A DNA stretch of 64,000 bases from Bacillota bacterium. GTDB taxonomy: Bacteria > Bacillota_I > Bacilli_A > RF39 > UBA660. Positions within the stretch are counted from its first letter, which is position 1, and each line of letters begins with the position of its first letter. Shown here in pieces: positions 8,645-64,000 of this stretch. The translations under genes and the position numbers were made by a program. The notes below the pieces were generated by a model that did not search any database, had not been told where the DNA came from, and saw only the letters and a list, made by a program, of their open reading frames with translations. Where the stretch lies: contig JAEWBI010000020.1 of assembly GCA_023391185.1 (NCBI GenBank), positions 5,592 to 69,591 of the forward strand. Direction: 5' to 3'.

Positions 8645-8664
8645 AACTATTTCTCCTTTTTATT

Positions 8665-9174: not shown

Positions 9175-9323
9175 TTTACCATCTTCCTAACATAATCATT
9201 ATAACAAATTTATTATCAATCATAAACCCTTTATTTAAACTTAGTAAACAAAAACCAATCTACTAATAGATTGGTTTACTAATTAATCAAAGTTGTTTTA
9301 TTTTAAGTACTAACTATTTAATC

Positions 9324-9704: not shown

Positions 9705-9808
9705 CCTTCATACTCCTCCTATAATACTACAAATATTTTAGCATGAAAGATATGTTGTTTCAAGATTTTTTGATGATTTGTATTTGTATTTACATACTCA
9801 TATAAAAA

Positions 9809-10684: not shown

Positions 10685-10775
10685 CTCTAGATAAATATAC
10701 TAAAAACTATGTAAATTATCTACCAACTACAAGTTGTTTTTATGCTACTTACGGTTGCGCATACATAATTCTCTA

Positions 10776-16471: not shown

Positions 16472-16822
16472 TTAATCTTTTGGTTTAAATATCAACGAAA
16501 GATAGAATGAAAAGATAATTGCAGAGCATATTCCAGATGCAGTAAGGTTAAACATTCCCATGATTAAACCCATTATTCCATATGTACCTGCTGATTCTAA
16601 CGCCCCATGAATTAATAAATGTCCAAAACTAGTTATAGGAACAAGTGCTCCTCCACCACAGAAGATGATTATCTTATCATAGAAATTAAATATATCTAAA
16701 AAAGAGCCAAGTACAACAAATATAGTAGTTATATGTCCTGGAGTAAGCTTGGTATTATCAAGTATTAATTCACCTATTAAACAAACAACTCCTGCAAATA
16801 AAAAGGAATATATATATATCAT
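16472..16822 (-). CDS. spoVAE: Stage V sporulation protein AEb (SpoVAC/SpoVAEb family).
   Basis: A 116-aa polytopic membrane protein at the third position of the spoVA tricistron, with a 4-nt overlap into spoVAD. Confidence 0.7.
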   Translation of the reverse strand: MIYIYSFLFAGVVCLIGELILDNTKLTPGHITTIFVVLGSFLDIFNFYDKIIIFCGGGALVPITSFGHLLIHGALESAGTYGIMGLIMGMFNLTASGICSAIIFSFYLSLIFKPKD

Positions 16823-17808
16823 TCTATTACCTCCAAACTTATAGCATGCGCAATTGAAGGAATTGGTAGTTTTTGATTTACAGTAGTTGTATTCATAAGC
16901 GCTCCTGTTGCAACTAATAAAACTTTATTAATCTTTTTTGCTTTCATCATACTAAAAACATATCCATATGAAACAAGTGGTAAACATGCTGGCCCACTTC
17001 CTCCTGCATAAACGTCTTGTTTTTTGATATCAAATATCATACAAGCTGAATCATCACAGTTATCTAAGTTTATTTTATAATTTTTTTTCATATATTCTTT
17101 TAACATAGGTTTTCCATATCTACCTAAATCACCTGTTAATATTAAATCATAATAATCTGGTTTTCTATTTGTTTGCTCTAAATGATCATGAATTGTTTGT
17201 GCAGCAGCAATTGCCATTACACCACCCATATTAAATACCTCTTTAATACCTGAATCTACTGCCTTACCTACTGTTGCACTTTCTACTTTAAAACCTGATT
17301 TTTTATTTGATAGAAATGCTGATGCAGCCCCTGTTACTGTAAAGGTTGTAGTTTTAGGTTTTGGTCCACCATATTCTACTGGATATCTAAACTGTTTTTC
17401 AGCAGTATTATTATGTGAAGATGTGCCTACAATAATATTATTAGACTGATTAGCTTCTATCATATTAGAAGCTATAATCAATCCTTCTACACTTGTTGCA
17501 CATGCACTATATATTCCTAGATAAGGTATATCATACTTACTTGCTGTATAATTTGAAGAAACTAATTGATTTAATAAATCACCAGATATAAATAATCCTA
17601 CATCTTTAATTTGTTTCTTTTCTTTTTTTAATAGTAAATTAATTGATTCATCCAATAATTTCATTTCTGCCTGTTCCCATGTGTCTTGTCCAAAATAGTA
17701 TTCATCATATTTTTTATCATAGTATTTTGATAATGGTCCGTCTTTTTCAAATGGTCCTGCGATTGTTTCTGTATTATTTATATATACATTATTATATTTA
17801 AAAGTCAT
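16819..17808 (-). CDS. spoVAD: Stage V sporulation protein AD (thiolase-fold, dipicolinic acid-binding).
   Basis: A 329-aa protein with N-terminus MTFKYNNVYINNTETIAGPFEKDGPL. It has a beta-ketoacyl-synthase-like fold with the Cys motif YSACATS. It is flanked by spoVAC and spoVAEb. Confidence 0.85.
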   Translation of the reverse strand: MTFKYNNVYINNTETIAGPFEKDGPLSKYYDKKYDEYYFGQDTWEQAEMKLLDESINLLLKKEKKQIKDVGLFISGDLLNQLVSSNYTASKYDIPYLGIYSACATSVEGLIIASNMIEANQSNNIIVGTSSHNNTAEKQFRYPVEYGGPKPKTTTFTVTGAASAFLSNKKSGFKVESATVGKAVDSGIKEVFNMGGVMAIAAAQTIHDHLEQTNRKPDYYDLILTGDLGRYGKPMLKEYMKKNYKINLDNCDDSACMIFDIKKQDVYAGGSGPACLPLVSYGYVFSMMKAKKINKVLLVATGALMNTTTVNQKLPIPSIAHAISLEVIE

Positions 17809-18248
17809 TAGCCACCAAATATAAGATATCTTATAATACCAAAAGTATAAGCACTAACTACACCAAAAACAATTACAGAACCAGCTAATTTAAACATATT
17901 TGCACCAATACCAGTTACCATACCTTCTTTGCGGTACTCTAAAGTTGCACTCATCATAGCATGAGCAAATCCAGTAATTGGAACAATTAAACCACATCTA
18001 GCTTTATGAACCCATTTATCAAAAAAACCAAAGCATGTTAATAAACATCCTAAAAAGACAAGAGTAACAATCATGAATACAGAGGCCTGAGCAGTTGGAA
18101 TATTAAAGAAATATGAATATGCCTCAACTAAAACTTGACCTATTAAACCCATAAATCCACCAACAAAAAATGCCACTACTGCATTCTTAAATCTATCTTC
18201 TGTTGGAGTATGTTTCTCAACAATTTCTTTATACATATTTTTATTCAT
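17808..18248 (-). CDS. spoVAC: Stage V sporulation protein AC.
   Basis: A 146-aa membrane protein at the first position of a spoVAC-spoVAD-spoVAEb tricistron, with a 1-nt overlap into spoVAD. Confidence 0.75.
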   Translation of the reverse strand: MNKNMYKEIVEKHTPTEDRFKNAVVAFFVGGFMGLIGQVLVEAYSYFFNIPTAQASVFMIVTLVFLGCLLTCFGFFDKWVHKARCGLIVPITGFAHAMMSATLEYRKEGMVTGIGANMFKLAGSVIVFGVVSAYTFGIIRYLIFGG

Positions 18249-18318
18249 AATAACCTCCTAAAATTATTATGAATAGTTTCTTTTTTTATATACGAACTAT
18301 TGTATATAAAAAAAGAAA

Positions 18319-18798
18319 TTAATTTAGTAATGAATTAATTTCTTTTTCAATCTTTAAAATAAAATTTTCATTATTATTATAATATTTTGAAAACTTATGT
18401 TTTTCAATAATATTAATGTTATTAATAAGTTCTTCTTTTGTAAGAGCCATTAAAACATAATTATTATCTACTAAATATTTAGTAATCTCTAACTGATGAT
18501 CATTTATATGTTCTTTATATTCTTTAAGTCTTGGTACAACTATTACCTTTTTGCCTTTTTCTAAGGCTTTAAAAATTGTTCCGCCACCACCATGAGTAAT
18601 TATTATTCTAGCTTCATCTATTTTTTGATTCATTTCATCATAATTAAAGAAATCATAATATTCAATATTTGGATTTTTAAAAGAAAATCTTCCTTTTCCG
18701 CCTTGAATAATAATCTGTTCTTTTATATTAAGACTATCTATATAATTAAATAATCTTTTAAAAGACTGTTTTTGTGTTCCAATAGTAAATAATATCAT
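18319..18798 (-). CDS. Alg13-like / glycosyltransferase family 28 C-terminal-domain protein (PssE/Cps14G/EpsF-type catalytic subunit).
   Basis: A 159-aa protein. The motif ITHGGGGTIFKALEKGKKVIVVPR matches the Alg13/MurG C-terminal UDP-sugar-binding half-domain. Its stop/start overlaps the upstream Alg14-like gene. Confidence 0.7.
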   Translation of the reverse strand: MILFTIGTQKQSFKRLFNYIDSLNIKEQIIIQGGKGRFSFKNPNIEYYDFFNYDEMNQKIDEARIIITHGGGGTIFKALEKGKKVIVVPRLKEYKEHINDHQLEITKYLVDNNYVLMALTKEELINNINIIEKHKFSKYYNNNENFILKIEKEINSLLN

Positions 18799-21128
18799 TA
18801 GTATACCCCCTTAATATATTTAGCTTTGGGGTATATTTCTTGATAATTATTGTGCTGAACAATAAAAGTTGTCGCGATAGGATAAACTAGTTTTCCTGAA
18901 AGAGTTGGTGTATGAGTCCTGTCAAAAACCTCTACAAATATAATCTTTCGATCAAAAAAGTAACCTAAGTAACACATTAATACTGATGTGTGGGCCCCTG
19001 TTGTATAAATGATATCAGGGTTATATCTAATGAAATAGTATATACTTTTTAAAACATTAAGAATACTTATAAAAACATATTTTAACATATAGTACCTTGA
19101 ACCATAAAATAAATATTTAATTTTATATTTTTCTTTAAGTTTCAAAGAAATTTTATTCTTTTCAGTTATTAAAATGTAATCATACTTATCATAAATACTA
19201 TCTATAGCTAGTAGTTCTGTAAGATGACCACCAACACTTGAAATAAATATAACTTTATTTTTATTTTTTAAATCTCTATAATTATAATCTAAAACTATTA
19301 AATTTAAAAGTAATAAAAAATGAATAAACTCATAACTCATATTTATATCAAGTAATGAAGAACCAATTAGTAATAAAAATAAAGCAATTATATATAAGGA
19401 TCTATCATCTCTTAATAATCTTATAGAATAAACAATACCATACGCAATTAAAGTAAAATAATAAATTACTCCTATTATGCCTAATTCTACTAACATTCTT
19501 GCTATAAAACTATGTTCATCAGAAGGTTCAAAACGAAAGTGATTATTTACTGAATAATACTTAAATGCTCTAAATCCTTGGCCAACTAACATATTTCCTT
19601 TAGTTATTTCTAAAACATGATTATATATATCCATTCTGCCATCTAAACTACCTTTATCGTACTTTGTTTGTTCTTTAGAATGAATATATATATATGGAGT
19701 TAAAATATTATCAACTTCATATACTTGTGTCTTATTAGTATCAAGATTAATTACATATACACTACTTATTTCAGCAGAATTATATATATCCATATTTTCT
19801 AATTCCAGATAATAATACTCGAACTCTTTAAGCGTATTTAATCTGAAATAGTAAGTATTTTGATCTTCATTTATAAACTTTGAATCAACTGTTTTCTTTA
19901 TTATATGAGAGTTTTTAACATATAAAACTTTCAATTTTAAAATAGGATTATTTAATTCATTTTTATTTTTTATATCTAACTTTATTAAATAACTCTTACT
20001 ACATTCTAAATTCATAAAGTCTGCAAAAATAATATTATCTTTTAAATTATTTTCTGTAATATTACTTATTTTTAAAGATTGAGATCTTGGAAAAGCAAAT
20101 AATATACAAACGATAAATAAAATTATAATAAAGGATATAGTATAGATAACTTTACTTTTTTTACTAATTAATAATAATATTAAATAGCTTATGTAATAAA
20201 TTATAAACATTAAGATAATAATAGATAAGAATATTATTAAATTATTGTTATATATAAATATACGAGTTTTATTAATAGCATATAGTACTGGTAAAATTAT
20301 ACAGAAATATATAGTTATTAAATTAATAATTTCTTTATACTTTTTTCGGATAAAGTAGTTAATTATTAGTAATATATTAATAATTAAAAATATCATGGTG
20401 GTTATTTTAGACATTGTTAATAAAAAAGCTAATAACAATATGAATAAACAAAAATGGAAAATAATATTCTTATTATCTGTAGTTAAATAATAACAAGTTA
20501 TAAAATACCCTGTTAGTATAAATGTAGCATAGGTATTAGGATAAAGAAGCGTACCATATAACCTATCTACACTACTTTTATAGAAATCTCCAAACCAAGA
20601 TTTTATTTGCAATAAATTTCCTATATCAGAATTACTTTGAATAATAAATGAAATAATTACTGATATAGTACTAGATAATATAATGGTTTTTAAGATATAG
20701 TTTAGTCTTTCTTTATTAATTATTCTTCTTAAAACAATTACATGAATAGCAATTAATAAACTAACTAATATATATTCTAAATTCAGTCTTATATTTGATA
20801 TATCTTTGCCACATAACATTGGAATAAAATATAACATAGGAAAAGTTAATATTATTAGATCTAATCTATTAAATTTAACTCTTCTTTCCTTATAAATAAA
20901 TATATATCCTAATGCTATAAATAATGTTGAAACAATCCATCCTATTTTTATATATTTAACAATAGATTGTGTGTCTTCAAATATATTAGAATAATTAAAA
21001 TATAGTGGACTTACCATTATATACACTAGAGTTAATAGTATAGTAATTTCTTCATACTTCTTTTTCATAATACACCTAGTTAAGTTACTTTCTAAGTAAA
21101 TTATACTATATGTATTTTTTTGATGCAA
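18798..21128 (-). CDS. Large polytopic membrane protein (O-antigen polymerase/ligase-like N-terminal domain) fused to a C-terminal Alg14-like (PssD/Cps14F) domain.
   Basis: A 776-aa protein with more than 10 TM helices in the first ~350 residues. The C-terminal ~150 aa (VIFISSVGGHLTELLAI...TTGAHTSVLMCYLGYFFDRKIIFVE) matches the Alg14 membrane-anchor subunit that partners with Alg13. Confidence 0.55.
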   Translation of the reverse strand: MHQKNTYSIIYLESNLTRCIMKKKYEEITILLTLVYIMVSPLYFNYSNIFEDTQSIVKYIKIGWIVSTLFIALGYIFIYKERRVKFNRLDLIILTFPMLYFIPMLCGKDISNIRLNLEYILVSLLIAIHVIVLRRIINKERLNYILKTIILSSTISVIISFIIQSNSDIGNLLQIKSWFGDFYKSSVDRLYGTLLYPNTYATFILTGYFITCYYLTTDNKNIIFHFCLFILLLAFLLTMSKITTMIFLIINILLIINYFIRKKYKEIINLITIYFCIILPVLYAINKTRIFIYNNNLIIFLSIIILMFIIYYISYLILLLISKKSKVIYTISFIIILFIVCILFAFPRSQSLKISNITENNLKDNIIFADFMNLECSKSYLIKLDIKNKNELNNPILKLKVLYVKNSHIIKKTVDSKFINEDQNTYYFRLNTLKEFEYYYLELENMDIYNSAEISSVYVINLDTNKTQVYEVDNILTPYIYIHSKEQTKYDKGSLDGRMDIYNHVLEITKGNMLVGQGFRAFKYYSVNNHFRFEPSDEHSFIARMLVELGIIGVIYYFTLIAYGIVYSIRLLRDDRSLYIIALFLLLIGSSLLDINMSYEFIHFLLLLNLIVLDYNYRDLKNKNKVIFISSVGGHLTELLAIDSIYDKYDYILITEKNKISLKLKEKYKIKYLFYGSRYYMLKYVFISILNVLKSIYYFIRYNPDIIYTTGAHTSVLMCYLGYFFDRKIIFVEVFDRTHTPTLSGKLVYPIATTFIVQHNNYQEIYPKAKYIKGVY

Positions 21129-21134
21129 CAGTAC

Positions 21135-21791
21135 CTAGTTCAAATTATTTCTTAGTTTTGTTAAGACTTTTTGTTCTTTTCTTGATACTTGGACTTGTGT
21201 CATACCCAAATTGCTAGCTGTTTGCATTTGAGTCTTATCATCAAAATATCTATTTCTTATAATTTCAAGTTCAGCTGAATCAAGTTTTGTAAGTTCTTGC
21301 TTTAAAGCAATTAAAGTGTTAATATCTAGACTTTTAGCTGGTATAGTTTCATGAAGAGTTACCTCTTTTGAATCACAAGCAATTGGTTCGTCAATACTTT
21401 TCACTTCCCTTTTGCTATTTAAAGCTTCGTTAACTAGTTCCTCAGGTATACCAAGAAAACTAGATAATTCACTTGTTGTTGGTAATCTATATAATCTTTG
21501 TGCCAACATATTTGACGCTTGCTCTATTTTAGAATTTAATGAACTAATATTTCTACTTATCTTTATAGATTTGTCTTCTCTTATAAACTTTTTCATTTCT
21601 CCTAAAATATATGTATAGGCATATGTCGTAAATTTTATATCAAAACTTTCATTATAATTTTGATATGCTTTTATCATTCCTATTACTCCTACTTGAAACA
21701 AATCTTCCTTATTACCATAATTACTAAAATAATTAGTAATTGAATAAATTAAATTTTGATTATTTAGTATTACTTGTTCAATAGGTTCCAT
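21135..21791 (-). CDS. sigF: Sporulation-type sigma-70-family sigma factor (SigF/SigG-like).
   Basis: Strong motif identity to B. subtilis SigF. Region 2: EDLFQVGVIGMIKAYQNYNESFDIKFTTYAYTYILGEMKKFIREDKSIKISR. Region 4: TQVQVSRKEQKVLTKLR. It lies directly downstream of a SpoIIAA-like STAS gene and upstream (after two glycosyltransferase genes) of spoVA, mirroring the B. subtilis spoIIA-spoVA arrangement. Confidence 0.75.
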   Translation of the reverse strand: MEPIEQVILNNQNLIYSITNYFSNYGNKEDLFQVGVIGMIKAYQNYNESFDIKFTTYAYTYILGEMKKFIREDKSIKISRNISSLNSKIEQASNMLAQRLYRLPTTSELSSFLGIPEELVNEALNSKREVKSIDEPIACDSKEVTLHETIPAKSLDINTLIALKQELTKLDSAELEIIRNRYFDDKTQMQTASNLGMTQVQVSRKEQKVLTKLRNNLN

Positions 21792-21802
21792 TTTTTATCT
21801 CC

Positions 21803-22144
21803 TTAAATATTAAATATATTTAATGCTGTTAATTCATTACTAGTTATGGGAATAAAACCTTTCATACCTTTTGTAAAGGCGCTTTCTACTGTACTATTTA
21901 TATTACATATTATTGAATCACCATGATTTTTTTTGCATAATTCATAATTATATATTAAAGAATTTATGCCATTAACATCTATTTCACTTATGTTTTCTAG
22001 ATTAAAAACAATGTTCCGTATACCATTGTCAAAAATCATTTCAGAGACATCTTCGTATAATTTATTACTTGTCTCACCATTTAATTTACCATCTAATCTA
22101 ATAAATAGAATCCCTTTTATAAACTCCATTTCTATTTCGAGCAT
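21803..22144 (-). CDS. spoIIAA: STAS-domain anti-sigma-factor antagonist (SpoIIAA-like).
   Basis: A 113-aa protein that aligns by eye to SpoIIAA (FIRLDGKLNGETSNKL...IRNIVFNLENISEIDVNGINSLI). The conserved phosphorylatable Ser in the DSSG motif is replaced by DVNG. Confidence 0.7.
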   Translation of the reverse strand: MLEIEMEFIKGILFIRLDGKLNGETSNKLYEDVSEMIFDNGIRNIVFNLENISEIDVNGINSLIYNYELCKKNHGDSIICNINSTVESAFTKGMKGFIPITSNELTALNIFNI

Positions 22145-37210: not shown

Positions 37211-38752
37211 CTAAAATGACTTCTTAAGTCTTTCTAAATATTGAATACATTCAGACATTGATTCATCTCCAAATGTCTTATGCAAATACTTTATAAAAGG
37301 ATCAATTTCATCACGTATTAATGAAATATTTAACTGATCAAATTTACGAAATATCTTCTTTGAAATAAAATAATCAATACCATCAACTTCTTTACCACCA
37401 CATGAAACATAAACTGGTACAAAGGCATTTAATTGTTTCATAATACGATTACCGAACGCTACGCGGAAATGATTGATAACATAAAGTTCCATATCTTGTA
37501 TTTTTTCAATTGATTTTGCGCTAACTGGTTTGTCTTCTTGAGCCTTTTTAAATAGTGATTCAAGATAACTTGAATTGATACTCATAGCTTCTTGTTCTCT
37601 ACTCTTAAATGGATCACAACGAGTATTGATATCAATTGGCATTGCACGGTCATAAACTTTATCTGTAACCATAAAAGTTGAATCATCATTATTGATTGTT
37701 CCAATATACCACAAATTGCCAGGTAATTTAAGTTTACCATCTACAATTCTTTCAGGATCATCTGCCCAACCACTTGATACAACAGGAATAATCCACTCTT
37801 CTCTAGAAGGCATTTCAAGAATTGAAAGCATCTCAGCGAAATAATATTCAACACGCGCGATATTCATTTCATCTAGAATAATTGTATGAATATCATCATC
37901 TAGACTAGCAACATAAAGTTCTACCAAAACTTTTGTTTCATTAAACTTTTTAGTGAACTCATTGAAGTACCCTATTAATTCTGTTTTATCTCTCCAAGAA
38001 GGTTCTACTGAAGCAACGCAAGAATCTTTATTTATAAATTTTCCCCATGCATATGCAAGTGAAGTCTTACCTGTTCCAGAAATACCTTGTAAAATTATTA
38101 ACTTACCAGAAGCTAATCCAGCAATAAATGCTCTTAAAAGTCCTGGTTCATAGTATAAGTGCAATTGTGTTGCCGAAAAGCAACGAAAGTTATCAACTAA
38201 TTCTTCCAGAGTAAGATTGTTATTGTAATTTTTAGGTTTAAATCCTTTGAATCTCCTATCAATACTACATAACATAGGGAATCTAGAATTAATACCTGCT
38301 AATTCATCTGCATCTAAATCTTCTTCCTCTGATAAGTTATCGCTCTCTTCTTTTTCTTTATCATCTGGTTTTAATCCTAGTTGCGAAACTTTCATAGCCA
38401 TAATTTCATCTTTTTCTTTCATAAGTTTCGCAACTTGATCATTTAAATCTGATATTTCATTTAATAAATCTTCTTGATTCATTCTCTTTTTACCTAGTTT
38501 AAAGAAACGCATTAATCGTGTAACTATTAAAAAGATTACTAAACCTACAATTATAACAAGGACTGCAACTAATATCCATAACAATATCCATTCGCCCTCT
38601 TGAAAACTTCCCTTATAACTATTTACTATCTTTAAGTATGATTTAATACTAAACATTTGGGCTAATCCTTCACCTATAGCCTTTATAATGAATAATAAAC
38701 CATCGAAAAATATTGAAATAAATTCATAGAAAAATCTTAAAAACGTATTCAT
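37211..38752 (-). CDS. Membrane-anchored McrB-family AAA+ (GTPase-type) protein.
   Basis: A 513-aa protein with an N-terminal ~80 aa carrying two TM helices, then a coiled coil. Walker A is ILQGISGTGKTS and Walker B is IILDEMNIARVEYYFAEMLSILE. The McrB-signature-like segment is YIGTINNDDSTFMVTDKVYDRA (cf. McrB GTMNTADRS...D.A.RRRF). The ATGA overlaps the upstream SipW-fusion gene. Confidence 0.65.
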   Translation of the reverse strand: MNTFLRFFYEFISIFFDGLLFIIKAIGEGLAQMFSIKSYLKIVNSYKGSFQEGEWILLWILVAVLVIIVGLVIFLIVTRLMRFFKLGKKRMNQEDLLNEISDLNDQVAKLMKEKDEIMAMKVSQLGLKPDDKEKEESDNLSEEEDLDADELAGINSRFPMLCSIDRRFKGFKPKNYNNNLTLEELVDNFRCFSATQLHLYYEPGLLRAFIAGLASGKLIILQGISGTGKTSLAYAWGKFINKDSCVASVEPSWRDKTELIGYFNEFTKKFNETKVLVELYVASLDDDIHTIILDEMNIARVEYYFAEMLSILEMPSREEWIIPVVSSGWADDPERIVDGKLKLPGNLWYIGTINNDDSTFMVTDKVYDRAMPIDINTRCDPFKSREQEAMSINSSYLESLFKKAQEDKPVSAKSIEKIQDMELYVINHFRVAFGNRIMKQLNAFVPVYVSCGGKEVDGIDYFISKKIFRKFDQLNISLIRDEIDPFIKYLHKTFGDESMSECIQYLERLKKSF

Positions 38753-41001
38753 ACTTCCTCACTCCCAAAATCCCCAACTTTATTAGATATATCTTCATAA
38801 ATTACTTTTTCTTTAAGATCATCTGGTATTAGTGAAACAATTTCCGCCAAATTCTCTAATTTTTTATTAACAAAGATATAATCTGCTATATATATATTGC
38901 CACGGTCTTTTTCTTTAATATTGCTGTCTTTACTAAAAACTAAAGCAAACTTATATCCACTTTTTTTGATTTTTTTAATAAAAACCTTATGTTTCAATAG
39001 TTCTTGAAATGTTACTAAGATAGCTGTATTCTCTTTAGAATATTTATCTTCAATCATCTTTAGTAGTTTTTCAAATTTCTTTTCTTTATCATACAAAGTC
39101 TCTGGAATATGGAAAACATACTTTTTACCAAAATCAAATGTTGTCATATCATTAATTAGTTGAATTAATAATAAAGTCACTAATACAGATATTTTATCCT
39201 CAGCCACAATTCCTTGTTCATATGTTTTATCTATAACATATGAACTATATACTTTACTAAAAGAAATATTATGTTCTAATTTCAATCCATATATTTTATT
39301 TTTAGTTGCTATTTTTTCAATATTTAGATTAAATAAATTTGTCTCTAATTTTTCAATAAAACTTTTTAATAATTCAGCATATTTTTTTTGTATAATAATT
39401 ATTTGTTTAATTAATGTATCAATCTTGTATTCATCTAATTCCTTTGAATATCTAGTCAATAGTTTTTTATAAAAATCACGTCTTGGACCTATTTCTTCAA
39501 TTGAATCTTTGGCCTTTTCAATATTAGCTATCAACATAAATACTTGTGCGTATTCATTAACTATTGCTTCATACTTGCGATTAGAACCAGTATATTTCTT
39601 AACCAAACCAGTTGATACATTGTTAATTGTCTTTTCCAGTCTTAACATTAGACTTTTCTTACTTGTTTCACTACTATCTTCTTCATAGTAATTATAATAC
39701 TTAGCATCAATATAATTAATTGTGAAAGTATTCTTAATGTTATTTCTAATTCCTGTTTCACTAACTTTTACTTTATCACTATTTATTAAAACCTTTACTA
39801 AACGATTAATCTCTTCTTTTTTTATTAACATAGCAGTATCAATTATATTTTGATTTCCTTTTCTGTCTTTCAAAAAGTTTAGATTTATTTTAGTTAAGCT
39901 TGAATCTTCTAAAATAATTTCATCGTCTTCTTCTACATCTTTATTAATAACAGGAGTATTAGTTGAATCTGATTGTTTACTATTTTTCATATTATTTGCT
40001 ATTTCTAATAGTGCAGAGCTATCTAATTCAGATATATCTACAGAAATATTTCTATATAATAAAGTTTTATCTAAATTATCCTCATCTTCAACTATATTAG
40101 TTTTTTCAATTAATTCCTCTTTTTCAACTTTATATTTTTCATCAACTTCATCATTTACTGAAATTACTCTAAAGAATGAGGTTTTACCAAGTTCATTTTC
40201 TAAATCAGCTTCAGATATTTCATCATTTTTTTGACTCGAAATTTCTTTAACCTTTTCTTCTTTTATTTCAACCGGTATATCTTCTAACCTATTTGAAACA
40301 TTAGGAACTTCAACAATTTTTCTCTCAACTTTTACTTGTTTAGTTTGTTCTTTTGAAGCTTCTATTTTTTTTCTAGGATAAACAGACTTAATAAATTTTA
40401 AAACAACTGGTATTATTCTCTTTTCAAGTACTTCTGAAATTTCATTAACTAGCATTGTTTTAGGTTTGTTACTATTTTTCTTATCGTCTTCTTTATTTTT
40501 CTTAACAACTATACTAAATAAAACTAATGTAATTATTAGAGTTATTAATACTGCTGGGTTAAATATTGTCTTTCTTAAAATTCCAAAACCAGCTAATTTT
40601 GCAACTTTCTTTCCTACTATTTGACTTTGATCTATTGGATCATCTTTTGTATTATTAGCATCACCTTTTGTTACATAAGTTCCATTATAAACCTCTATAA
40701 TACGGTGTGTTACATACTCTCCATCAATTTCATATGTTACAATATCATTTAATTTAACGTCTTGTGTTATTTTGGTAATAATCCAATCACCAGCACTTAT
40801 TTCTTTTTCCATACTGCCTGTTTGAACTTCAAATATTGAATATCCAAAAAAGTCAGTATAATTTTTATTCATTATTTTAGTTTGTATGCCTGTATATATT
40901 GTTACTAATAAAATAATTCCAAATATACCTATTAATATATTCAATAAAAAATTTATTATTTTTTCAATTATATTTATTTTTTTGGAATCGATATTTACCA
41001 C
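38749..41001 (-). CDS. SipW-type signal peptidase I domain fused to a ~550-aa C-terminal (predicted cytoplasmic) K/E-rich domain.
   Basis: A 750-aa protein. It has an N-terminal TM, catalytic boxes FEVQTGSMEKEI, VTHRIIEV and TKGDANNTKDDP (boxes B, D and E of S26 peptidases), a second TM (VLITLIITLVLFSIVV), and then a long hydrophilic extension. Confidence 0.65.
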   Translation of the reverse strand: MVNIDSKKINIIEKIINFLLNILIGIFGIILLVTIYTGIQTKIMNKNYTDFFGYSIFEVQTGSMEKEISAGDWIITKITQDVKLNDIVTYEIDGEYVTHRIIEVYNGTYVTKGDANNTKDDPIDQSQIVGKKVAKLAGFGILRKTIFNPAVLITLIITLVLFSIVVKKNKEDDKKNSNKPKTMLVNEISEVLEKRIIPVVLKFIKSVYPRKKIEASKEQTKQVKVERKIVEVPNVSNRLEDIPVEIKEEKVKEISSQKNDEISEADLENELGKTSFFRVISVNDEVDEKYKVEKEELIEKTNIVEDEDNLDKTLLYRNISVDISELDSSALLEIANNMKNSKQSDSTNTPVINKDVEEDDEIILEDSSLTKINLNFLKDRKGNQNIIDTAMLIKKEEINRLVKVLINSDKVKVSETGIRNNIKNTFTINYIDAKYYNYYEEDSSETSKKSLMLRLEKTINNVSTGLVKKYTGSNRKYEAIVNEYAQVFMLIANIEKAKDSIEEIGPRRDFYKKLLTRYSKELDEYKIDTLIKQIIIIQKKYAELLKSFIEKLETNLFNLNIEKIATKNKIYGLKLEHNISFSKVYSSYVIDKTYEQGIVAEDKISVLVTLLLIQLINDMTTFDFGKKYVFHIPETLYDKEKKFEKLLKMIEDKYSKENTAILVTFQELLKHKVFIKKIKKSGYKFALVFSKDSNIKEKDRGNIYIADYIFVNKKLENLAEIVSLIPDDLKEKVIYEDISNKVGDFGSEEV

Positions 41002-57060: not shown

Positions 57061-57633
57061 TTAAAGTGCCATATTTCCATTTATAATATCACCAAGATAT
57101 CTAAAATATAATTTGAAAATATTAACTTTATCAACATCTTCAGTAGTTGTAATCGGAACTTCTCTTATGACTTCATCATCTTCATAAACTAGTATTTTTC
57201 CTACTTCATCCCCTATTTTAAGTGGGGCTTTTACATTATACATCTTAACTTTATATGTAGCGTTAGTTTTTTGTTCAAGTTTCTTATTTAAAAATGTAAT
57301 ATCTTCTTTTGGTACAACATCTACATATCTCTTAGTACCTTTATCAACTTCTGTTCTTCCTATAACACTTTCAGTAGAAAGAAGAGTTTCCAGTTCATAC
57401 TGAGAGTAACCATAATCAAGCATTGCAGATACTTCAGCGTTTCTCACAGTAGAATCTGCCTCTCCCATTACAACTGCGATTAAACGCATGTTATTCTTTT
57501 TAGCAGTCGCTGTTAAGCAATAACCAGCTCCTTCAGTAAAACCTGTCTTAAGACCATCAACACCACTATAAAAGCGTACTAGTTTGATTGTATGTGAATA
57601 AAGCATTAATCTTCCTCGTCTTGAATAGTATCA
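57061..57633 (-). pseudogene. dacF: C-terminal fragment (~190 aa) of a PBP5/DacF-like D-alanyl-D-alanine carboxypeptidase (peptidase S11). The N-terminal catalytic half is missing.
   Basis: The fragment SRRGRLMLYSHTIKLVRFYSGVDGLKTGFTEGAGYCLTATAKKNNMRLIAVVMGE aligns with E. coli DacA [46 protein letters not shown] (KTG box present). There is an in-frame stop at 57631-57633. No SxxK or SxN region is found in the ~390 nt upstream in any frame. Confidence 0.75.
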
Positions 57634-58024
57634 ATTAGTAATGATAATAACTCTAATTGATAATCAAGTCATTAGTTCATCTAATATTAACAGGGAGATT
57701 AATCATATTAAGTGAAATGATTGAAACATTCATTACTATTATTATTCATAGACAAAATGTTTGCTTATAATACCCTATTTATAGGCTATTCTAGAAACTA
57801 TTGTTCAAAGCGTATCAAATGTATACTGTAGTGATTAAATAGTCTTATATGGCGATTAAACAAGTTGTTTTATATACTGGGGGGTATCAGAAATATTTAC
57901 TAAGTTATATTATGAAAAAATGGCGATAGCACCTTGCTTAATCGTGTTGCAATAATAATCGAATGATAATCTTAATGTTTCTAATCATAATCACATAAAT
58001 TCAATTAGATAAGGTTGTGATATA

Positions 58025-59461
58025 TTGATAAAAACAGATATTGTTAAAACGGGAATATATATGCGTGTATCTACTGAAGACCAAGCAAAAGATGGTTTCT
58101 CTATTCACGCACAAAGAGAAAAATTAAGTAGTTATGCAAACATTTGTGATTGGGAGATAGCCGACTATTATATTGATGAGGGCATCTCTGCCAAAAATAC
58201 AAAAGATAGACCTGATATAAACAGGTTAATCAATGATGTGAAGAGTGGCAAGGTTAACAATGTACTTGTCTATAAACTAGATAGACTTACACGTTCGGTC
58301 AAAGACCTTATTACTTTGATTGAACTATTTGAACAATATAATTGTACATTTAGTTCTGTAACGGAAAAACTTGAAACAGGTACAGCAACAGGTCGTATGT
58401 TTATAAAAATAATTGGAATCTTTGCCGAATTCGAAAGAGAAAATTTAGCTGAAAGAGTTTCCTTCGGATATGAACAAAAGACTCGTGAAGGAAACTATAC
58501 GAACACTAACGGAGTCAATGGCTTCGACTATATAGTTGGTAAAGGAGATTTAATTGTTAATGAGCAAGAAAAAGAAATAGTTAATAGAATATATGATATG
58601 TACTTAGAAGGCACATCAATGTTAAAGATAGCTAGAACGTTTAACTCTGAACAAATACCTAGTAAACGAGGAGGCTATTGGTCACAGAGTACAATAAAGT
58701 CAATACTTACTAACCCACTCTATATTGGAAAGATAAGATATGGAGTAAATAAGAAAATACAAAATAAAGCTTTTCAAGTAAACGGTGAACAAGAATCATT
58801 AATTGATAAAGATACATTTAAAAGTGTTCAAGAAATGATATTAAAAAGAAAGCATTTTAATTCTAAAAAATATCCTAGTGAAAATGCTTACTTCTCTTCT
58901 GTATTGAGATGCCATAAATGCGGAAGCAGATTTCATCCTAAACAGCAAAAACAAAATGGTAAATACTATATTACCTATTATTGTAATAATAAACAGATAA
59001 ATAAATGCGATTCTAGTGGTATATCTCATACTAAGGTATTAAATGCTTTTGAAGAATATATAAGTAATATTACTCTTGATAAATCAATTGAAATAAAACC
59101 AAATACAGATAATAAGAAACAAGAAGAAAAATTAATCAAGGAATTAGATAATATTGATAAAAAAAGAAAAAGATTACAAATGCTATTTATTGATGAACAA
59201 ATAAACAACTCAGATTATCAAGAGATGATTACTCAATTAGAAAAAGATAGAAATAAGATTAATGAGAGTATTAAAGTTCTTTCTTCAGTACAAGAGAATA
59301 TTGATTATAATGATATTAAAAATATAATTACCAATGTTAAAAAGAATTGGGATTATCTAAACGAAGTAGAAAAAAATATATTTATAAATCAATTTATAAA
59401 GCAAATAAATATAGATATAGTTAATAATCAAGTAATAATAAAAGAAGTACAATTTTGTTAG
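58025..59461 (+). CDS. Large serine recombinase (resolvase/invertase catalytic domain, recombinase domain, zinc ribbon and coiled coil).
   Basis: The N-terminus has the catalytic Ser (GIYMRVSTEDQAKDGFSIHAQREKL). The motif VYKLDRLTRS is present, as is a Cys cluster (LRCHKCGSRF...YYCNNKQINKC). Size is 478 aa. Confidence 0.9.
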   Translation: MIKTDIVKTGIYMRVSTEDQAKDGFSIHAQREKLSSYANICDWEIADYYIDEGISAKNTKDRPDINRLINDVKSGKVNNVLVYKLDRLTRSVKDLITLIELFEQYNCTFSSVTEKLETGTATGRMFIKIIGIFAEFERENLAERVSFGYEQKTREGNYTNTNGVNGFDYIVGKGDLIVNEQEKEIVNRIYDMYLEGTSMLKIARTFNSEQIPSKRGGYWSQSTIKSILTNPLYIGKIRYGVNKKIQNKAFQVNGEQESLIDKDTFKSVQEMILKRKHFNSKKYPSENAYFSSVLRCHKCGSRFHPKQQKQNGKYYITYYCNNKQINKCDSSGISHTKVLNAFEEYISNITLDKSIEIKPNTDNKKQEEKLIKELDNIDKKRKRLQMLFIDEQINNSDYQEMITQLEKDRNKINESIKVLSSVQENIDYNDIKNIITNVKKNWDYLNEVEKNIFINQFIKQINIDIVNNQVIIKEVQFC

Positions 59462-59503: not shown

Positions 59504-60268
59504 ATGATGACAAATACTTACACAAAAGAAACAAAAAGAGAAATAAAACTTTTTTTAACTCAGCTAAAACAATTAGAAAGAACTTTAATTGATATTATGC
59601 AAGAAGAAAATGTGCATATTATGAACAAGTATGTATCTTACAAAGAATATATAAGAATATATAATGACATAGTAACTATTCTAAAAGAAAAGGAATTAAT
59701 TACAGGTGTTTTTTATACTTATAATGACATTGATTCAATACCATATGCCGCAGATATGCTACCTTTTCAACAAAAAATTTTAATGGAAGGATTATTAATA
59801 AACATTAGATTAACTATATCTTCATTAGAAAGTAATATCGACTTTGTTGATGATGAGATAAACGGTCTAGCAAACTTTATCCAGACTAATCTAAGGGCAA
59901 CTTTTGAAAAAGAACCTGTAGATGAAAAAGAAGTTCAACATCATCTAGAAATCTTATTTCTTGGTAATAATTTAAAGAAAGGAATTGACTTTGAAAGAGA
60001 ATCAGGAAAATTTTCTTTTTCTGGAAAAGAATACATACCAGATTTTATTTTTAAAAAATATAAGATGTGTCTAGAAGTTAAAACTACAAAGAAAAATAGC
60101 AAATCAAAAATTATTGAAGAAATAAATGCAGATATAAATGCCTATAAAAAGAAATATGATACTCTAATGTTCATTATTTATGATTTTTCAAAAATAACAA
60201 ATGAAAATGAATTTAAATCAGATTTAGAATCATCAGGTAATGTAAAAGTTATTATTATTAAACATTAA
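59504..60268 (+). CDS. Hypothetical protein with a C-terminal PD-(D/E)xK nuclease-like motif. Possible defence or abortive-infection protein.
   Basis: A 254-aa protein containing ...YIPDFIFKKYKMCLEVKTTKKN... (D...E-V-K spacing typical of restriction-endonuclease-fold nucleases). Confidence 0.4.
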   Translation: MMTNTYTKETKREIKLFLTQLKQLERTLIDIMQEENVHIMNKYVSYKEYIRIYNDIVTILKEKELITGVFYTYNDIDSIPYAADMLPFQQKILMEGLLINIRLTISSLESNIDFVDDEINGLANFIQTNLRATFEKEPVDEKEVQHHLEILFLGNNLKKGIDFERESGKFSFSGKEYIPDFIFKKYKMCLEVKTTKKNSKSKIIEEINADINAYKKKYDTLMFIIYDFSKITNENEFKSDLESSGNVKVIIIKH

Positions 60269-60295
60269 AAGAGATTATATTTTTAATCTCTTTTA
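60267..60295. terminator. Bidirectional hairpin terminator between convergent genes.
   Basis: aaaagagattaTATTTTtaatctctttt lies between the stop of gene 59504-60268 (+) and the stop of the UvrD-like gene (-). Confidence 0.55.
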
Positions 60296-62239
60296 TAATT
60301 CTATTATCTCCCAAGCATCTGCATTCAAATGTGGAGCATATAAATCATATGTTGTTCTTTTCATAGCTATACATAATAAATATTTTGGTCTACTAATTCC
60401 AACATATACAATTTTTCTGCTTTTTTCGTGAACGTCTCCAATAGGCAGTTTTTCTTCTTTAAATAGAGGCAAAACTCTCTTAATGTCAGTTCCACTTTTA
60501 TAACTAGTCTCTAAATATAATGTAGCAGTATGAGTCTCCCCTTTTACTGCGTGAACAGTCGTGACTTCTAATTCAACCTTTTCTTCGCCATCTACAAATG
60601 TATAAAAATTATTATGTGAATTTAGTATTTCTTCATCCTGTGCTTGATTCTCAAATTCTATAAATGATTTTATCTGCTCATAGTTAATAAAATCTAATTC
60701 AAGGATTTTATTTTTGATTTTTAATTTCAGATTTTCAAGTTGAGATTTTTGTTCAATGTCTTTGAAAACTATGTTGGAAAGTTCTAAAAGAAAATCTTTA
60801 TAATAATAATTATTTAGTCCTTTGAGAAATATACTTAAAGACTTTGGGGTATACTTTCTATTATTGGAATCTTTTTTACCGCATCTATTAAAACATTCAA
60901 GATAGATTGAATCCACTAATTGAATCATTTTGTCCATCCTATTATTATTAATCATTACATATATTTGATTAATGTAATCATCTAAATATAATGTTTTTTT
61001 ATTTTGAATACTATTCTTTTCAAATTCATTCCAATAATCTCCAATTTGTATTCCAGAACCATCTTTTTTTATCATTCCAACTGCTTTAAAGATTGGATTT
61101 TTATTTTGGTTTAATCTTTTTTCTATTATTAAACTGCAAAACCTAGGAAGAACCTCTTTGATTTTATTATCATCATATACAATAATATGTGGCTTTAAAA
61201 CTGGCTCTGTAACAACATCAGAATTTATTACGTTTGGTTCGGATTTTAGTTTGGCTACTTGATTTGCTATTATTTGTGAAAACCTATTTGTATTGGACAG
61301 ATATAATTTGTTTTCAAATAAATTCCATTCGCTTTGTTCGTCATTATAACTATTATATATCGCTTGGTCAGTATCTCCTATTCTTTGAAAAATTGTTTGA
61401 CTATTTTTAAAAATTTTATCTAACAACTGTACTTGAAGTTTGTTACAATCCTGATATTCATCAACTAGTGATATATAGAATCTTTTGCTAATAATTGTTG
61501 TAAAACAAGGATATTCATTCAATGCTCTAATTGCAAAATAATATGCATCATAATAATTAATATTGCCATTTGCCCATAAATAGCTTTTTAATCTTATAAA
61601 TTCATTACAAGATTTGCTAGTACTATTAGAAATTAATCGACCGTTTTGCATTAAATCATTAGTTTCTGAATTTATATATAAATCTAATAAGAACTTTTTT
61701 TCATCTCCATTATATCCCCCTGTCTGAGCCGAGCGATGTACAAAAGGTCTTAAATTATATAATGGAATGCTTTGATTTTGATAAAGTTCATACAAGTCAT
61801 CATTATATTTATTACTATCACAAACAGTTATAGGATGAGAAGTTACGTTAGTTAAATATGGAAATACTATAAATTTGTGAATAAAACTCTGAATTGTACC
61901 AACAAAATTTGGATAACTTAATATTACTGAGGCTTTTGATGATAATTTTGATTTTATTTCATCTATAGCAACATTAGTATGAGATAAAATACACATTCCT
62001 CTATTATTTATAAATGGCATTTTATTAGCTAAAATATCTATTTTAGCTATTAACATAGTTGTTTTGCCAGCACCTGGGCAAGCTAAAATATCACAACTAT
62101 TTAATTCTTTTATAGCACTCTTAGCCTCTTCTGAAAAATGACAATCTTCTGGCAATATGTTTTTTTCTGATGAAGCAATATCATTATCGGTAATATTAAT
62201 CATCATTTTCCACCACATTTGCGGCATATCTAATACCAT
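60293..62239 (-). CDS. gajB: UvrD/PcrA-family helicase, GajB-like.
   Basis: Walker A CPGAGKTTMLIAK and helicase motif II VDEYQDCN are present. Size is 648 aa. It overlaps the upstream OLD-family gene by 44 nt. Confidence 0.65.
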   Translation of the reverse strand: MVLDMPQMWWKMMINITDNDIASSEKNILPEDCHFSEEAKSAIKELNSCDILACPGAGKTTMLIAKIDILANKMPFINNRGMCILSHTNVAIDEIKSKLSSKASVILSYPNFVGTIQSFIHKFIVFPYLTNVTSHPITVCDSNKYNDDLYELYQNQSIPLYNLRPFVHRSAQTGGYNGDEKKFLLDLYINSETNDLMQNGRLISNSTSKSCNEFIRLKSYLWANGNINYYDAYYFAIRALNEYPCFTTIISKRFYISLVDEYQDCNKLQVQLLDKIFKNSQTIFQRIGDTDQAIYNSYNDEQSEWNLFENKLYLSNTNRFSQIIANQVAKLKSEPNVINSDVVTEPVLKPHIIVYDDNKIKEVLPRFCSLIIEKRLNQNKNPIFKAVGMIKKDGSGIQIGDYWNEFEKNSIQNKKTLYLDDYINQIYVMINNNRMDKMIQLVDSIYLECFNRCGKKDSNNRKYTPKSLSIFLKGLNNYYYKDFLLELSNIVFKDIEQKSQLENLKLKIKNKILELDFINYEQIKSFIEFENQAQDEEILNSHNNFYTFVDGEEKVELEVTTVHAVKGETHTATLYLETSYKSGTDIKRVLPLFKEEKLPIGDVHEKSRKIVYVGISRPKYLLCIAMKRTTYDLYAPHLNADAWEIIEL

Positions 62240-64000
62240 TTATTAAATACGCCAAAAATCTATCAGATAGAATTTTGCTTTTTAGTTGTGCTTTCATTTC
62301 GTCATTAACCTTTTTTCTGAATAAATTAACATCGAAAATATCAACCAAACTTTTTGGTTCATCCAATATTTCATACAAAAGCAAATTTGATAAACACTGA
62401 GAAACTATAGCTTTTGATACCTTGTCACTTTCCTTTAACATTATTTCTTTATAAATTAAATATGATATTCTTTCATTAGAATAATTTCGCTCAGCCCATA
62501 ATTTATAGTCAGCATCAACTTGAGTATTTACTTCTACTATTTTATCTTCTGTAATAGGATTTTTTTCACTATTTTGCACTTTTTTTGCCAACAAAATAGC
62601 TTTATAAAAATATTTTTGTAAAGAACTTAATCCTAAACAATATTCAAATGTCCATCTAGGAGATACAAAAGCATTGATGTTTTTTTCACTAAAATAATTG
62701 TATTTTCTTGTAATTTCAGCTTCTAATTCTTCCATATTTTCTTGTATTTGTCCTGTTTCCAGAGATGGTTTGACATCACAATCGGTAATTATTGATATAG
62801 GAATATTTATATTGCCATCTTCTTCTGAAGCCCTTAAAAATATTTTTGAATATCTTAAAAATGCAGTATTTTCGACATTTACAATTGTTATACCATAAGT
62901 ATGTAGAGGAATATCTATTATTTGCGTAATAGTAGGTAATAAAATAAATTCTGAAATCCCCTCCACAAAAATTAGACCTTGTGAAAAGAACATATTAGAT
63001 TTCGTTACATCCAAAAATCTTTGTAAGAACAAATAATCACTTGGAGTCAATTTAGTTTTCTCAGGTTTTAAAGAAAATCCTTTATTATCTTTACATATCA
63101 AAATATTTTTTAGATTAATTTTTGAAGTGACATTTGGACTATGTGTGGTAAGAATAAATTGAACTCCGCCATTATCATATTCTTTTTGAATATATTCAAT
63201 TAATCTGAGTTGAGCCTGTGGATGTAAATGAGATTCAATTTCTTCTATTAAAACTAATTTTAATCCTCCATTGCGGCAATTATCTAGCAGTAATAATTCT
63301 GTAGCAATAAAAAGTAAATTCAGTGAACCTAAACCTGGTTTTATATCAGATAGCGATAATGACATTCCTTCTAATATTTGTTTTAACTTAGTACCAGAAG
63401 TCGAAAAATGAATTTCTTTAGATGAATTAGGATTACAAAATTCATTTAAATGTTTTACAATATTATCACTTACTTTTTTTCCACCATTATCAGAATCATC
63501 TGTTTCAAAATATTCTTCTATTTTAAAATTTGCATCATTTAATATTTGAACTAGTTGATGCTCTTCCCCACTTAAAAATGAAGTATGTCCTAACAAAATT
63601 TGAGATAATCGTGAATTTCTAGTTGCTCTTAAATCATATTCAGCATCTCTTAATGGCTTCAAGTATACTGCTTTCAACAACTCTCTAGCTTTAGAATCCA
63701 TAGTTGTACCATCATCAGTAAAACCAGCTCTAAATTCATTATAGATTTTATTATTCTCTTTAGAACAAATGCAAAAAACTCGCAACTTATATTTTATTGT
63801 TTCTATTCCATCTGAATTGGTATCCTTATATGCTTGTATCCATTCTAAAAAATTCTTTGCCTCTTCATCAGAAAGTTCATCAAATATGCATTCTATTTTA
63901 AAAACATTGCTTTCAAAGTCATCACTATAATAAAAATCATCGTCAGTTATTTTTATATATTCACTGCTTTGTGTTTGTAAAAGTATTTTAATTGCATCAA
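62196..64000 (-). CDS. gajA: OLD-family ABC-type ATPase plus Toprim nuclease, GajA-like. The N-terminus with Walker A lies beyond the window end.
   Basis: The OLD/AAA_15 signature LVLIEEIESHLHPQAQ is present, as is TTHSP. The Toprim motifs are LIFVEGISEFILLP (Glu) and ITDCDVKP (DxD). Hand translation shows the reading frame continues open from 63786 to 64000 (…EWIQAYKDTNSDGIETIKYKLRVF…), so the ORF-table start at 63785 is not the true start. Confidence 0.65.
   Translation of the reverse strand, partial: DAIKILLQTQSSEYIKITDDDFYYSDDFESNVFKIECIFDELSDEEAKNFLEWIQAYKDTNSDGIETIKYKLRVFCICSKENNKIYNEFRAGFTDDGTTMDSKARELLKAVYLKPLRDAEYDLRATRNSRLSQILLGHTSFLSGEEHQLVQILNDANFKIEEYFETDDSDNGGKKVSDNIVKHLNEFCNPNSSKEIHFSTSGTKLKQILEGMSLSLSDIKPGLGSLNLLFIATELLLLDNCRNGGLKLVLIEEIESHLHPQAQLRLIEYIQKEYDNGGVQFILTTHSPNVTSKINLKNILICKDNKGFSLKPEKTKLTPSDYLFLQRFLDVTKSNMFFSQGLIFVEGISEFILLPTITQIIDIPLHTYGITIVNVENTAFLRYSKIFLRASEEDGNINIPISIITDCDVKPSLETGQIQENMEELEAEITRKYNYFSEKNINAFVSPRWTFEYCLGLSSLQKYFYKAILLAKKVQNSEKNPITEDKIVEVNTQVDADYKLWAERNYSNERISYLIYKEIMLKESDKVSKAIVSQCLSNLLLYEILDEPKSLVDIFDVNLFRKKVNDEMKAQLKSKILSDRFLAYLINGIRYAANVVENDD

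Follow-up and report, generated by a model that had tools for sequence, protein, structure and literature searches.

In the window analysed here, a stretch of 64,000 nucleotides of contig JAEWBI010000020.1 from a Bacillota bacterium (GCA_023391185.1), the D,D-carboxypeptidase gene dacF is interrupted by an integrative element of 14,855 bp, of which only the right-hand 6.4 kb falls inside the window. The element encodes a large serine recombinase (LSR), termed LSR1, together with anti-phage defence genes. From the sequence it is secure that this LSR element splits dacF and that its precise excision would restore the gene. The arrangement is best explained, with a probability of roughly 55%, as an excisable gene-intervening defence island of the skin/SPbeta/gin kind with dacF as a new target gene, which would be excised in the mother cell during sporulation.

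The split dacF gene and its attachment sites

The C-terminal dac fragment is encoded by a minus-strand open reading frame (ORF) at 57061-57606, called with 181 aa in the ORF listing of the window, and its frame is closed by an in-frame stop at 57631-57633. It matches the Pfam profile Peptidase_S11 only at profile positions 195-237 of 239, i.e. the last 43 positions, and additionally holds a complete PBP5_C domain. Where intact relatives read ...WLVNTNKLVRFY.GVDGLKTG..., the window reads MLYSHTI-KLVRFYSGVDGLKTG. According to Pfam and the intact relatives, dac homology starts at the K codon at 57583-57585, within the WLVNTN/K motif and 13 residues before KTG, and the host-derived 3' part of dacF (57061-57585, minus strand; K-LVRFYSGVDGLKTG... 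to the stop) comprises 175 codons with KTG and PBP5_C. The first seven codons of the called ORF (MLYSHTI, 57586-57606) belong to the element, whose arm supplies the ATG and six further codons, so that gene callers report the C-fragment as a complete 181-aa protein. Annotation pipelines currently list such dac split products as truncated "hypothetical" proteins.

A first-pass annotation of the window had described the truncated C-terminal part with its KTG box and stop, a 478-aa LSR on the opposite strand about 390 bp further on and defence cargo behind it, all of which was confirmed; it had also proposed that the N-terminal half of the gene might lie beyond the element in the same orientation. 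This half was found as a 214-aa fragment 14,855 bp away, on the same strand of the same public contig. The contig (L001; ENA, 186.9 kb) is 99.99% identical to the window, and its far side was reached via a small element gene. The N-fragment is located at L089:4491-5135 and the C-fragment begins at L089:19955, both on the plus strand. The N-fragment is preceded by greA, tig, a VanY gene and a pilin-like gene, carries a signal peptide and the motifs SMTK and SGND, and terminates with ...WLVNTNK-VVC and a stop codon.

Upon deletion of the element in silico, an uninterrupted 384-aa DacF was obtained, which aligns with the intact 385-aa orthologue P0244 at 74% identity, end-to-end and gapless at the junction. 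The two halves flank the element in one orientation and its precise deletion restores one intact ORF, as in gene-intervening elements. Only in the rejoined protein are the hallmarks of a PBP5/DacF enzyme (peptidase S11), namely SxxK, SxN, KTG and PBP5_C, united in one secreted polypeptide, and neither fragment in the genome has all motifs. Since the N-half is devoid of KTG and the C-half of both the catalytic serine as nucleophile and the signal peptide, we infer that neither fragment could be active alone.

The position of the junction was derived by comparison with 75 intact attB sequences and with the attL site of L089. The attR site occupies 57560-57609 and consists of the host B' arm (57560-57582), an AAA core (57583-57585) and the element P arm (57586-57609; TTAATGCTTTATTCACATACAATC in dac orientation). 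It reads TTAATGCTTTATTCACATACAATCAAA up to the junction and CTAGTACGCTTTTAT behind it; attL correspondingly reads ...AATACAAATAAA followed by GTCGTGTGTTAAGAAAGCATTAA, and the host sequence at attB is ...TGGTTAGTAAATACAAATAAACTAGTACGCTTTTATAGTGG... The AAA core is the sole identity common to all four att sites, so the short repeats predicted for both junctions take the form of this core with related flanking arms. Joining the two element arms gives the deduced attP TTAATGCTTTATTCACATACAATCAAAGTCGTGTGTTAAGAAAGCATTAA, in which 18 of 23 arm positions are symmetric and centred on A^A, as is expected of a serine-integrase site. Short sites, an imperfect attP dyad around a central dinucleotide and the lack of long direct repeats, all typical of serine integrases, are seen here, and attB is placed in a segment of about 50 bp inside the WLVNTNK-coding part of dacF. 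Internal att-like repeats, as a sign of a tandem array, were sought and none was found.

Between attR and the recombinase gene lies a non-coding spacer (57610-58024, plus strand), which is presumed to be the LSR1 promoter region; it contains no ORF of at least 40 aa and is 94.5% identical to that of a sister lineage carrying a related element. LSR1 (58025-59461, plus strand) starts 0.4 kb from the dac fragment on the opposite strand, 391 nt past the stop at 57631-57633. It comprises 478 aa from a TTG codon, the probable start being the ATG at 58061 chosen by gene callers (466 aa). The domains of a large serine recombinase, i.e. the resolvase catalytic domain (PF00239, 2e-40), the recombinase domain (PF07508, 4e-24) and the zinc ribbon (Zn_ribbon_recom, PF13408, 5e-10), are all present, the N-terminus reads MRVSTEDQ, and a PHROG integrase was matched at 1e-127. 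Among solved structures, the integrase of TP901-1 (3bvp, 2.6e-27) and SPbeta SprA/YokA (9dxh, 1.4e-11, residues 43-452) were retrieved, and the best phage relatives are at most 36% identical. By these matches LSR1 is classed as a TP901-1/SprA-type serine integrase, for which attP x attB integration and, with a directionality factor, attL x attR excision are predicted.

Cargo and architecture of the island

Read in dac orientation, the element starts with a gene for a KAP-family NTPase, a 209-aa gene, a helix-turn-helix (HTH) gene and two small membrane-protein genes (202 and 108 aa). Its middle part holds a DnaD/O-like winged-helix gene, an 89-aa gene, a second LSR gene (LSR2, 491 aa) and a 33-aa ORF on the opposite strand, and it ends with GajA, GajB, a restriction endonuclease (REase)-like gene and LSR1. 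Inside the window, LSR1 is thus neighboured by a gene for a DpnII/MboI-like REase-fold cargo protein (59504-60268, plus strand; 254 aa) with a Pfam match to PF18742 (6e-13) and a weak PADLOC match to Aga_Helical-REase. The UvrD-like helicase GajB (60293-62203, minus strand) has 636 aa as called, its ORF being open to 62239, and was recognised over its full length by PADLOC (3e-168) and by Pfam (UvrD-helicase). GajA (62196-64000, minus strand; 646 aa), an OLD-family ATPase with a TOPRIM nuclease, is cut at its 5' end by the end of the window, its start corresponding to window-equivalent position 64136; the full-length copy in L089 gave a PADLOC match at 1.5e-203 and Pfam matches to AAA_15/AAA_21/OLD-like_TOPRIM. 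The two gaj genes are adjacent and overlapping, and both are full length by PADLOC, as required for a Gabija system.

GajA and GajB were screened by Pfam and PADLOC only, and the other element proteins by PHROGs and Pfam. The PHROG and Pfam matches comprised integrases, HTH regulators, the DnaD/O-like winged-helix protein and, for the REase-like protein, a PHROG of unknown function. No phage structural or lysis genes and no conjugation genes (type IV secretion system (T4SS) or relaxase) were found among the element proteins with PHROGs and Pfam, so that the element qualifies neither as a prophage nor as an integrative and conjugative element (ICE). Single-protein scans of IMG/VR with the rejoined DacF and with LSR1 yielded no relatives, hence the element is not represented there as a virus. 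As judged from gene content and junctions, the window contains the right end of an integrative island that is neither of phage type nor conjugative, and its insertion into dacF is attributed to LSR1.

The flanking DNA of the sister lineage is about 90-93% identical; its element has the same junctions, the same backbone blocks and an LSR1 of 92% amino-acid identity. All cargo is different. Instead of the genes described above it carries Sa_NUDIX with a CD-NTase-like gene (CBASS-like), an LSR2 of 38% identity, and DUF4236/FtsK-gamma, a DUF2726 helicase and ThsA/ThsB (Thoeris). The backbone consists of the ends, LSR1, the two small membrane-protein genes and the 33-aa ORF, while the exchangeable slots are filled here by the KAP NTPase, the second LSR module and Gabija with the REase. 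The element is therefore read, from this pairwise comparison, as a mosaic: three slots of its backbone are exchangeable, and defence systems fill two of them. The LSR2 module (L089:10328-13190, past the window end) is situated between conserved backbone blocks, and the sister element has a different module there; it looks like a nested mini-element targeting a site within the island.

Use of the split gene and the timing of excision

Both halves of dacF are under very strong purifying selection. Between the window and the sister lineage, the N-half and the C-half have ratios of non-synonymous to synonymous divergence (dN/dS) of 0.02 (dS 0.49) and 0.03 (dS 0.57), below the values of the host comparison genes greA (0.09) and tig (0.10). 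LSR1 has a dN/dS of 0.15 at a dS of 0.27, and the dS of the backbone (0.21-0.30 for the membrane-protein genes) falls inside the host-gene range of 0.14-0.57. Over a dS of 0.27, neutral decay would have led to about 250 non-synonymous differences in the two halves, of which 12.5 were counted, the expectation presuming that the elements co-diverged with their hosts, as the dS values suggest. Given this selection on two fragments that are expected to be inactive alone, it is well supported by the sequence comparison that the split dacF remains in use, which would require LSR1-catalysed attL x attR excision.

The identity of the gene follows from its surroundings. In relatives (e.g. L073), dac directly abuts spoIIAA, ahead of spoIIAA-sigF-spoVAC/AD/AEB, and the order dacF-spoIIAA-sigF-spoVA is that of B. 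subtilis. In the window the same genes lie outside the element on the dac strand, about 35 kb downstream of dac (16475-22144, minus strand): a spoIIAA-like STAS gene (21806-22144), sigF (21135-21791), two glycosyltransferase genes and spoVAC/AD/AEB (16475-18248). They were located by tblastn with the sporulation genes of L007, and sigF by the Pfam sigma-70 r2/r3/r4 domains. The intervening block of about 35 kb (22211-56618) contains genes mostly without Pfam matches, among them paralogous secreted proteins with similar N-termini, an S24-like peptidase (38749-41001), an Ig-like surface-domain protein and ABC transporters. Across the clade, sigF, spoIIAA and spoVA are found near dacF in about ten loci including the window, and genes for small acid-soluble spore proteins (SASP/SSPI) in two.

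Of 75 species, 72 share the motif k[C/T]ATAww-N13-CATAtttT at 24 nt ahead of the dacF start codon. Its CATA -10 element and the lack of TATAAT make it a promoter of sporulation type, which together with the synteny marks dac as a sporulation gene. In the same clade, the promoters of spoVAC have the form GTATA-N17-CATAATA. Strict consensus regular expressions for sigmaE, sigmaK, sigmaF and sigmaG gave nothing useful and were replaced by two-block position weight matrices (PWMs), trained on the mapped sigmaE, sigmaK, sigmaF and sigmaG promoters of C. difficile (PMC3789822 Tables S6, S7), and controls. The dacF promoters scored higher on the mother-cell PWM in 66 of 76 species (median +5.4 bits), with sigmaE above sigmaK in 69. 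As a control, the spoVAC promoters were of forespore type in 9 of 9 cases, whereas 400 background upstream regions split 49/51 and had a median score of 2.2, compared with 8.1 for dacF. For the genome of the window the dacF promoter scored 7.4 (sigmaE/K) versus 0.8 bits. A PWM built from the dacF promoters themselves did not reveal a regulon within the window. This scoring suggests that the gene, though syntenic with dacF, is transcribed in the mother cell like B. subtilis dacB. The premise of the first-pass annotation that dacF is a forespore gene may therefore not hold in this clade, and the main objection to a skin-type mechanism would be lifted.

Taken together, LSR1 would insert the island into attB within the WLVNTNK-coding segment of dacF, and LSR1-catalysed attL x attR excision would rejoin the gene when the enzyme is needed. 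Because the element persists in the germ line, the most economical mechanism would be its excision at sporulation in the mother cell, which is terminally differentiated, as with skin/SpoIVCA, SPbeta/SprA-SprB and gin. This would fit the conserved sigmaE-like promoter upstream of dacF in the clade; such a coupling to sporulation is given about even odds.

A recombination directionality factor (RDF) might be provided by the 33-aa ORF MKNKINIKTQELITKFFLKYSIPKILKEKNNKQ (L089:13195-13296, minus strand; window-equivalent about 64265-64366), which is part of a conserved 110-nt block that the sister elements share and is homologous to 34-aa ORFs directly upstream of LSR1-like genes in L094 and L095. 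On the mother-cell model its upstream region reached 11.8 bits, with p about 0.01 in comparison with shuffled sequences. SprB of SPbeta and CD1234 are small RDFs controlled by sigmaE/K (PMC4191935; PMC3789822 Table S7), and by this likeness the 33-aa ORF is, speculatively, a candidate directionality factor. The conserved pair of 202 and 108 aa was also considered for this role and rejected, both being multi-pass membrane proteins. A bolder version of the preferred explanation would see a widespread family of such LSR-borne islands, in spore-forming gut Bacilli with small genomes and Tenericutes labels, as a developmental switch for the spore-cortex gene dacF, rewired from forespore to mother cell (sigmaE), with excision in the mother cell only and triggered by a sigmaE/K-driven 33-aa RDF; this is rather doubtful.

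Several findings weigh against the preferred explanation. The rejoined proteins of the window species and of the sister lineage were absent as exact matches from a collection of 15 billion proteins. An exact search for the attP 23-mer in IMG/VR and JGI metagenome contigs found none, which is weakly negative, as the pattern allowed no variation and assemblies rarely capture minority circles. Upstream of LSR1, the score for a sporulation-type promoter was not above chance. The RDF candidate has only 33 aa, and in relatives its promoter signal is weak (9.1, 8.2 and 4.6 bits; p 0.06-0.41). In B. subtilis, dacF is expressed in the forespore. C. difficile dacF is sigmaG-dependent (PMC3789822), and the mother-cell assignment made here for dacF is drawn solely from promoter-motif scores. 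Moreover, at least six further species have an N-fragment with 100% identity to the corresponding part of an intact allele (GTDB representative). Elements therefore come and go, recently in those species, and part of the constraint seen in dN/dS could stem from ancestors in which the gene was intact until recently. For the window species only split alleles are on record, from few samples.

The alternative with the best standing, which is possible though not preferred, is an ordinary integrative defence island for which dacF is a safe landing site, the gene being off and this being tolerated while the island is resident, with sporadic excision that belongs to the life cycle of the island itself and is not developmentally programmed. 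The enzyme would then be dispensable or redundant, and the intact halves would reflect rapid gain and loss. Consistent with this, dacF single mutants of B. subtilis show little phenotype, split alleles occur within single species beside intact ones of 100% amino-acid identity, sister elements swap their cargo, no sporulation-type promoter was detected upstream of LSR1, and intact alleles dominate the best GTDB matches. The occurrence of two unrelated LSR families at different motifs of dacF, one of them on ICE-like elements with a T4SS coupling protein (see below), likewise fits a merely tolerated landing site. Against it, the backbone dS, comparable to that of host genes, suggests long co-residence, during which both halves were held at a dN/dS below that of greA and tig; as the window's element is without machinery for transfer or replication, its functional LSR would hardly have been kept for anything but excision; and only split alleles have been recorded in the few samples of the window species.

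The first-pass annotation had also offered dead-end insertional inactivation, by which the element would be an immobile remnant and the dac pieces pseudogene fragments. The missing attP or attB evidence for the window species and the composite nature of the element, in which a second LSR module might have disrupted function, are compatible with this fate. It is nevertheless very improbable, as both halves are intact frames at a dN/dS of 0.02-0.03, LSR1 is intact with three domains at 0.15, the att arms are conserved and dyad-symmetric, and the same configuration was kept in a lineage diverged by about 8-10% in nucleotides. That the C-fragment is an ancient conserved stand-alone gene, for which many homologues of about 181 aa with their own ATG could be cited, or that the split is an assembly artefact, can practically be dismissed: this ATG and the next six codons are element arm and not dac, the matching N-fragment is on the same contig, intact orthologues of 380-390 aa are common and align end-to-end with the rejoined halves, and the same junction is present in independent ENA, Logan and NCBI assemblies.

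Distribution of split and intact alleles

Profile and sequence searches retrieved many N-fragments ending in NTNKVV[C/Y/S/F] and many C-fragments beginning with MLYSHTIK. In a set of 50%-identity representatives, 54 of the best 150 matches were full length, and about 8 clear and 6 probable cases start at the NTNK junction; the best 80 GTDB matches were all uninterrupted. An earlier inference that the split is the norm, made from a word-indexed search in which the top 120 matches were nearly all fragments, was dropped, since GTDB and the representatives show many intact genes and such fragment-rich lists are not to be read as frequencies. Several species hold both split and intact alleles. The arm-derived prefix MLYSHTI(K) also occurs on dac genes only 34-49% identical to that of the window, and LSR1 relatives of 63%, 53% and 51% identity were found at the same junction with other cargo (SMEK/SLFN-helicase/MazG). 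The hosts are metagenome-assembled genomes labelled Bacilli, Tenericutes or Mycoplasmatota incertae sedis (Ca. Fimihabitans, Ca. Pelethosoma), and three complete or circular assemblies among the matches measure 1.2-1.5 Mb.

Variants of the arrangement were observed in single loci. In two LSR1 relatives (L094:9110-11425 and L095:8350-10724) the integrase is encoded at the attL (N-fragment) end on the dac strand, with the attL arm AAAGTCGTGT unchanged, so gene order relative to attP is not fixed in the family. At L004:9096-10558, a C-fragment split at the NTNK junction has a more divergent arm, AACATACGAATAAA, and its neighbours are a Fic-domain gene and a DDE transposase; no LSR is located within 10 kb of it, and the element may be larger or decayed. 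The 319-aa protein P0039 has an unrelated N-terminal region joined to dac sequence from ...YVRENTNRKIWLVNTNKLV on, which is either another rearrangement upstream of the NTNK site or an assembly chimera.

A second hot spot was detected in the same gene at the SxN motif (...ASGND/AVVA...; L007:1-10831 and L174-L177 around 8323-10777). The LSR family at this site (559-566 aa) is unrelated, with only 22-25% identity to LSR1. One of its elements spans 9.7 kb and has metabolic cargo (dCMP deaminase, GNATs, RelA/SpoT, SAM synthetase); another resembles an ICE, encoding a T4SS coupling protein and a 2129-aa SNF2 helicase, and its C-fragment protein occurs in 79 blocks of the protein collection. A third hot spot at SxxK, suggested by proteins starting with MTKMM, was discarded, as P0121 and P0122 differ only in whether the N-terminus is included, so that such starts are probably gene-call artefacts.

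Comparison with known elements and implications

The closest described system is gin, followed by skin/SpoIVCA and SPbeta/SprA-SprB. The gin element in gerE of Bacillus cereus ATCC 10987 has 28.6 kb and three recombinases, and its excision during sporulation has been demonstrated (PMC5595907). Like the element described here it is no prophage, splits a small sporulation gene, has several serine recombinase genes and no phage genes, and rejoins the ORF upon precise excision. It differs in its target, gerE being a mother-cell regulator of the sigmaK regulon, whereas here dacF is split by an element with defence cargo and two LSRs, the excision of which is predicted from sequence. For skinCd of C. 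difficile, excision uses the RDF CD1234 (PMC5025042), which is included in the list of mapped sigmaE promoters (PMC3789822 Table S7). The skin element in sigK of B. subtilis shares with the window an LSR encoded beside one att site and the reconstitution of a sporulation gene, which is predicted for the window; skin is, however, a degenerate prophage in a mother-cell sigma-factor gene, while the present element is not phage-derived. SPbeta (134 kb) is in contrast an active phage with a different attB sequence and target gene. In spsM it is excised in the mother cell by SprA-SprB, triggered by a small RDF with a sporulation-specific promoter (PMC4191935, PMC5499854). Common to both are a serine integrase, an interrupted gene that acts on the spore envelope and the match of LSR1 to the SprA structure 9dxh, which is weak (E=1e-11), LSR1 being related to TP901-1 and SprA at family level only.

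Other serine recombinase elements reside in specific sites of conserved genes, e.g. Tn5397/TndX, Tn4451/TnpX, SCCmec/Ccr and the A118-type prophage in comK. They resemble the window's element in their site-specific insertion within a conserved gene that is restored by precise excision, but encode transfer or phage functions, with excision as a part of horizontal transfer, and the element described here has neither. The SxN-site elements (L174-L177) represent an ICE-like type of this group. With defence islands on integrative elements the island has in common that the slots between its conserved ends are exchangeable and are taken by genes of Gabija, Thoeris, CBASS-like and KAP-NTPase type; here, in contrast, the integration site is inside a sporulation gene of uncultured Bacilli with small genomes. 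None of the papers listed by the literature searches describes a serine integrase that targets dacF or any other D,D-carboxypeptidase gene, and none a defence island that interrupts a sporulation gene.

Whichever explanation applies, the window provides a defined serine-integrase/att pair, with an attB of about 50 bp in a conserved coding motif and a dyad-symmetric attP, and the natural integrase/att variants across hosts with targets of 34-49% identity are useful for LSR specificity and genome engineering. dacF itself is a recurrent integration hot spot for two unrelated LSR families in two segments coding for catalytic motifs. If excision is coupled to sporulation, a cortex-synthesis gene would be added to the short list of sporulation genes under the control of DNA rearrangement, the phenomenon would extend to uncultured gut Bacilli with reduced genomes, and such elements could carry exchangeable anti-phage defence instead of just being decayed prophages. 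Should the island family indeed act as a developmental switch, the germ line would keep a swappable anti-phage arsenal without cost to spore quality.

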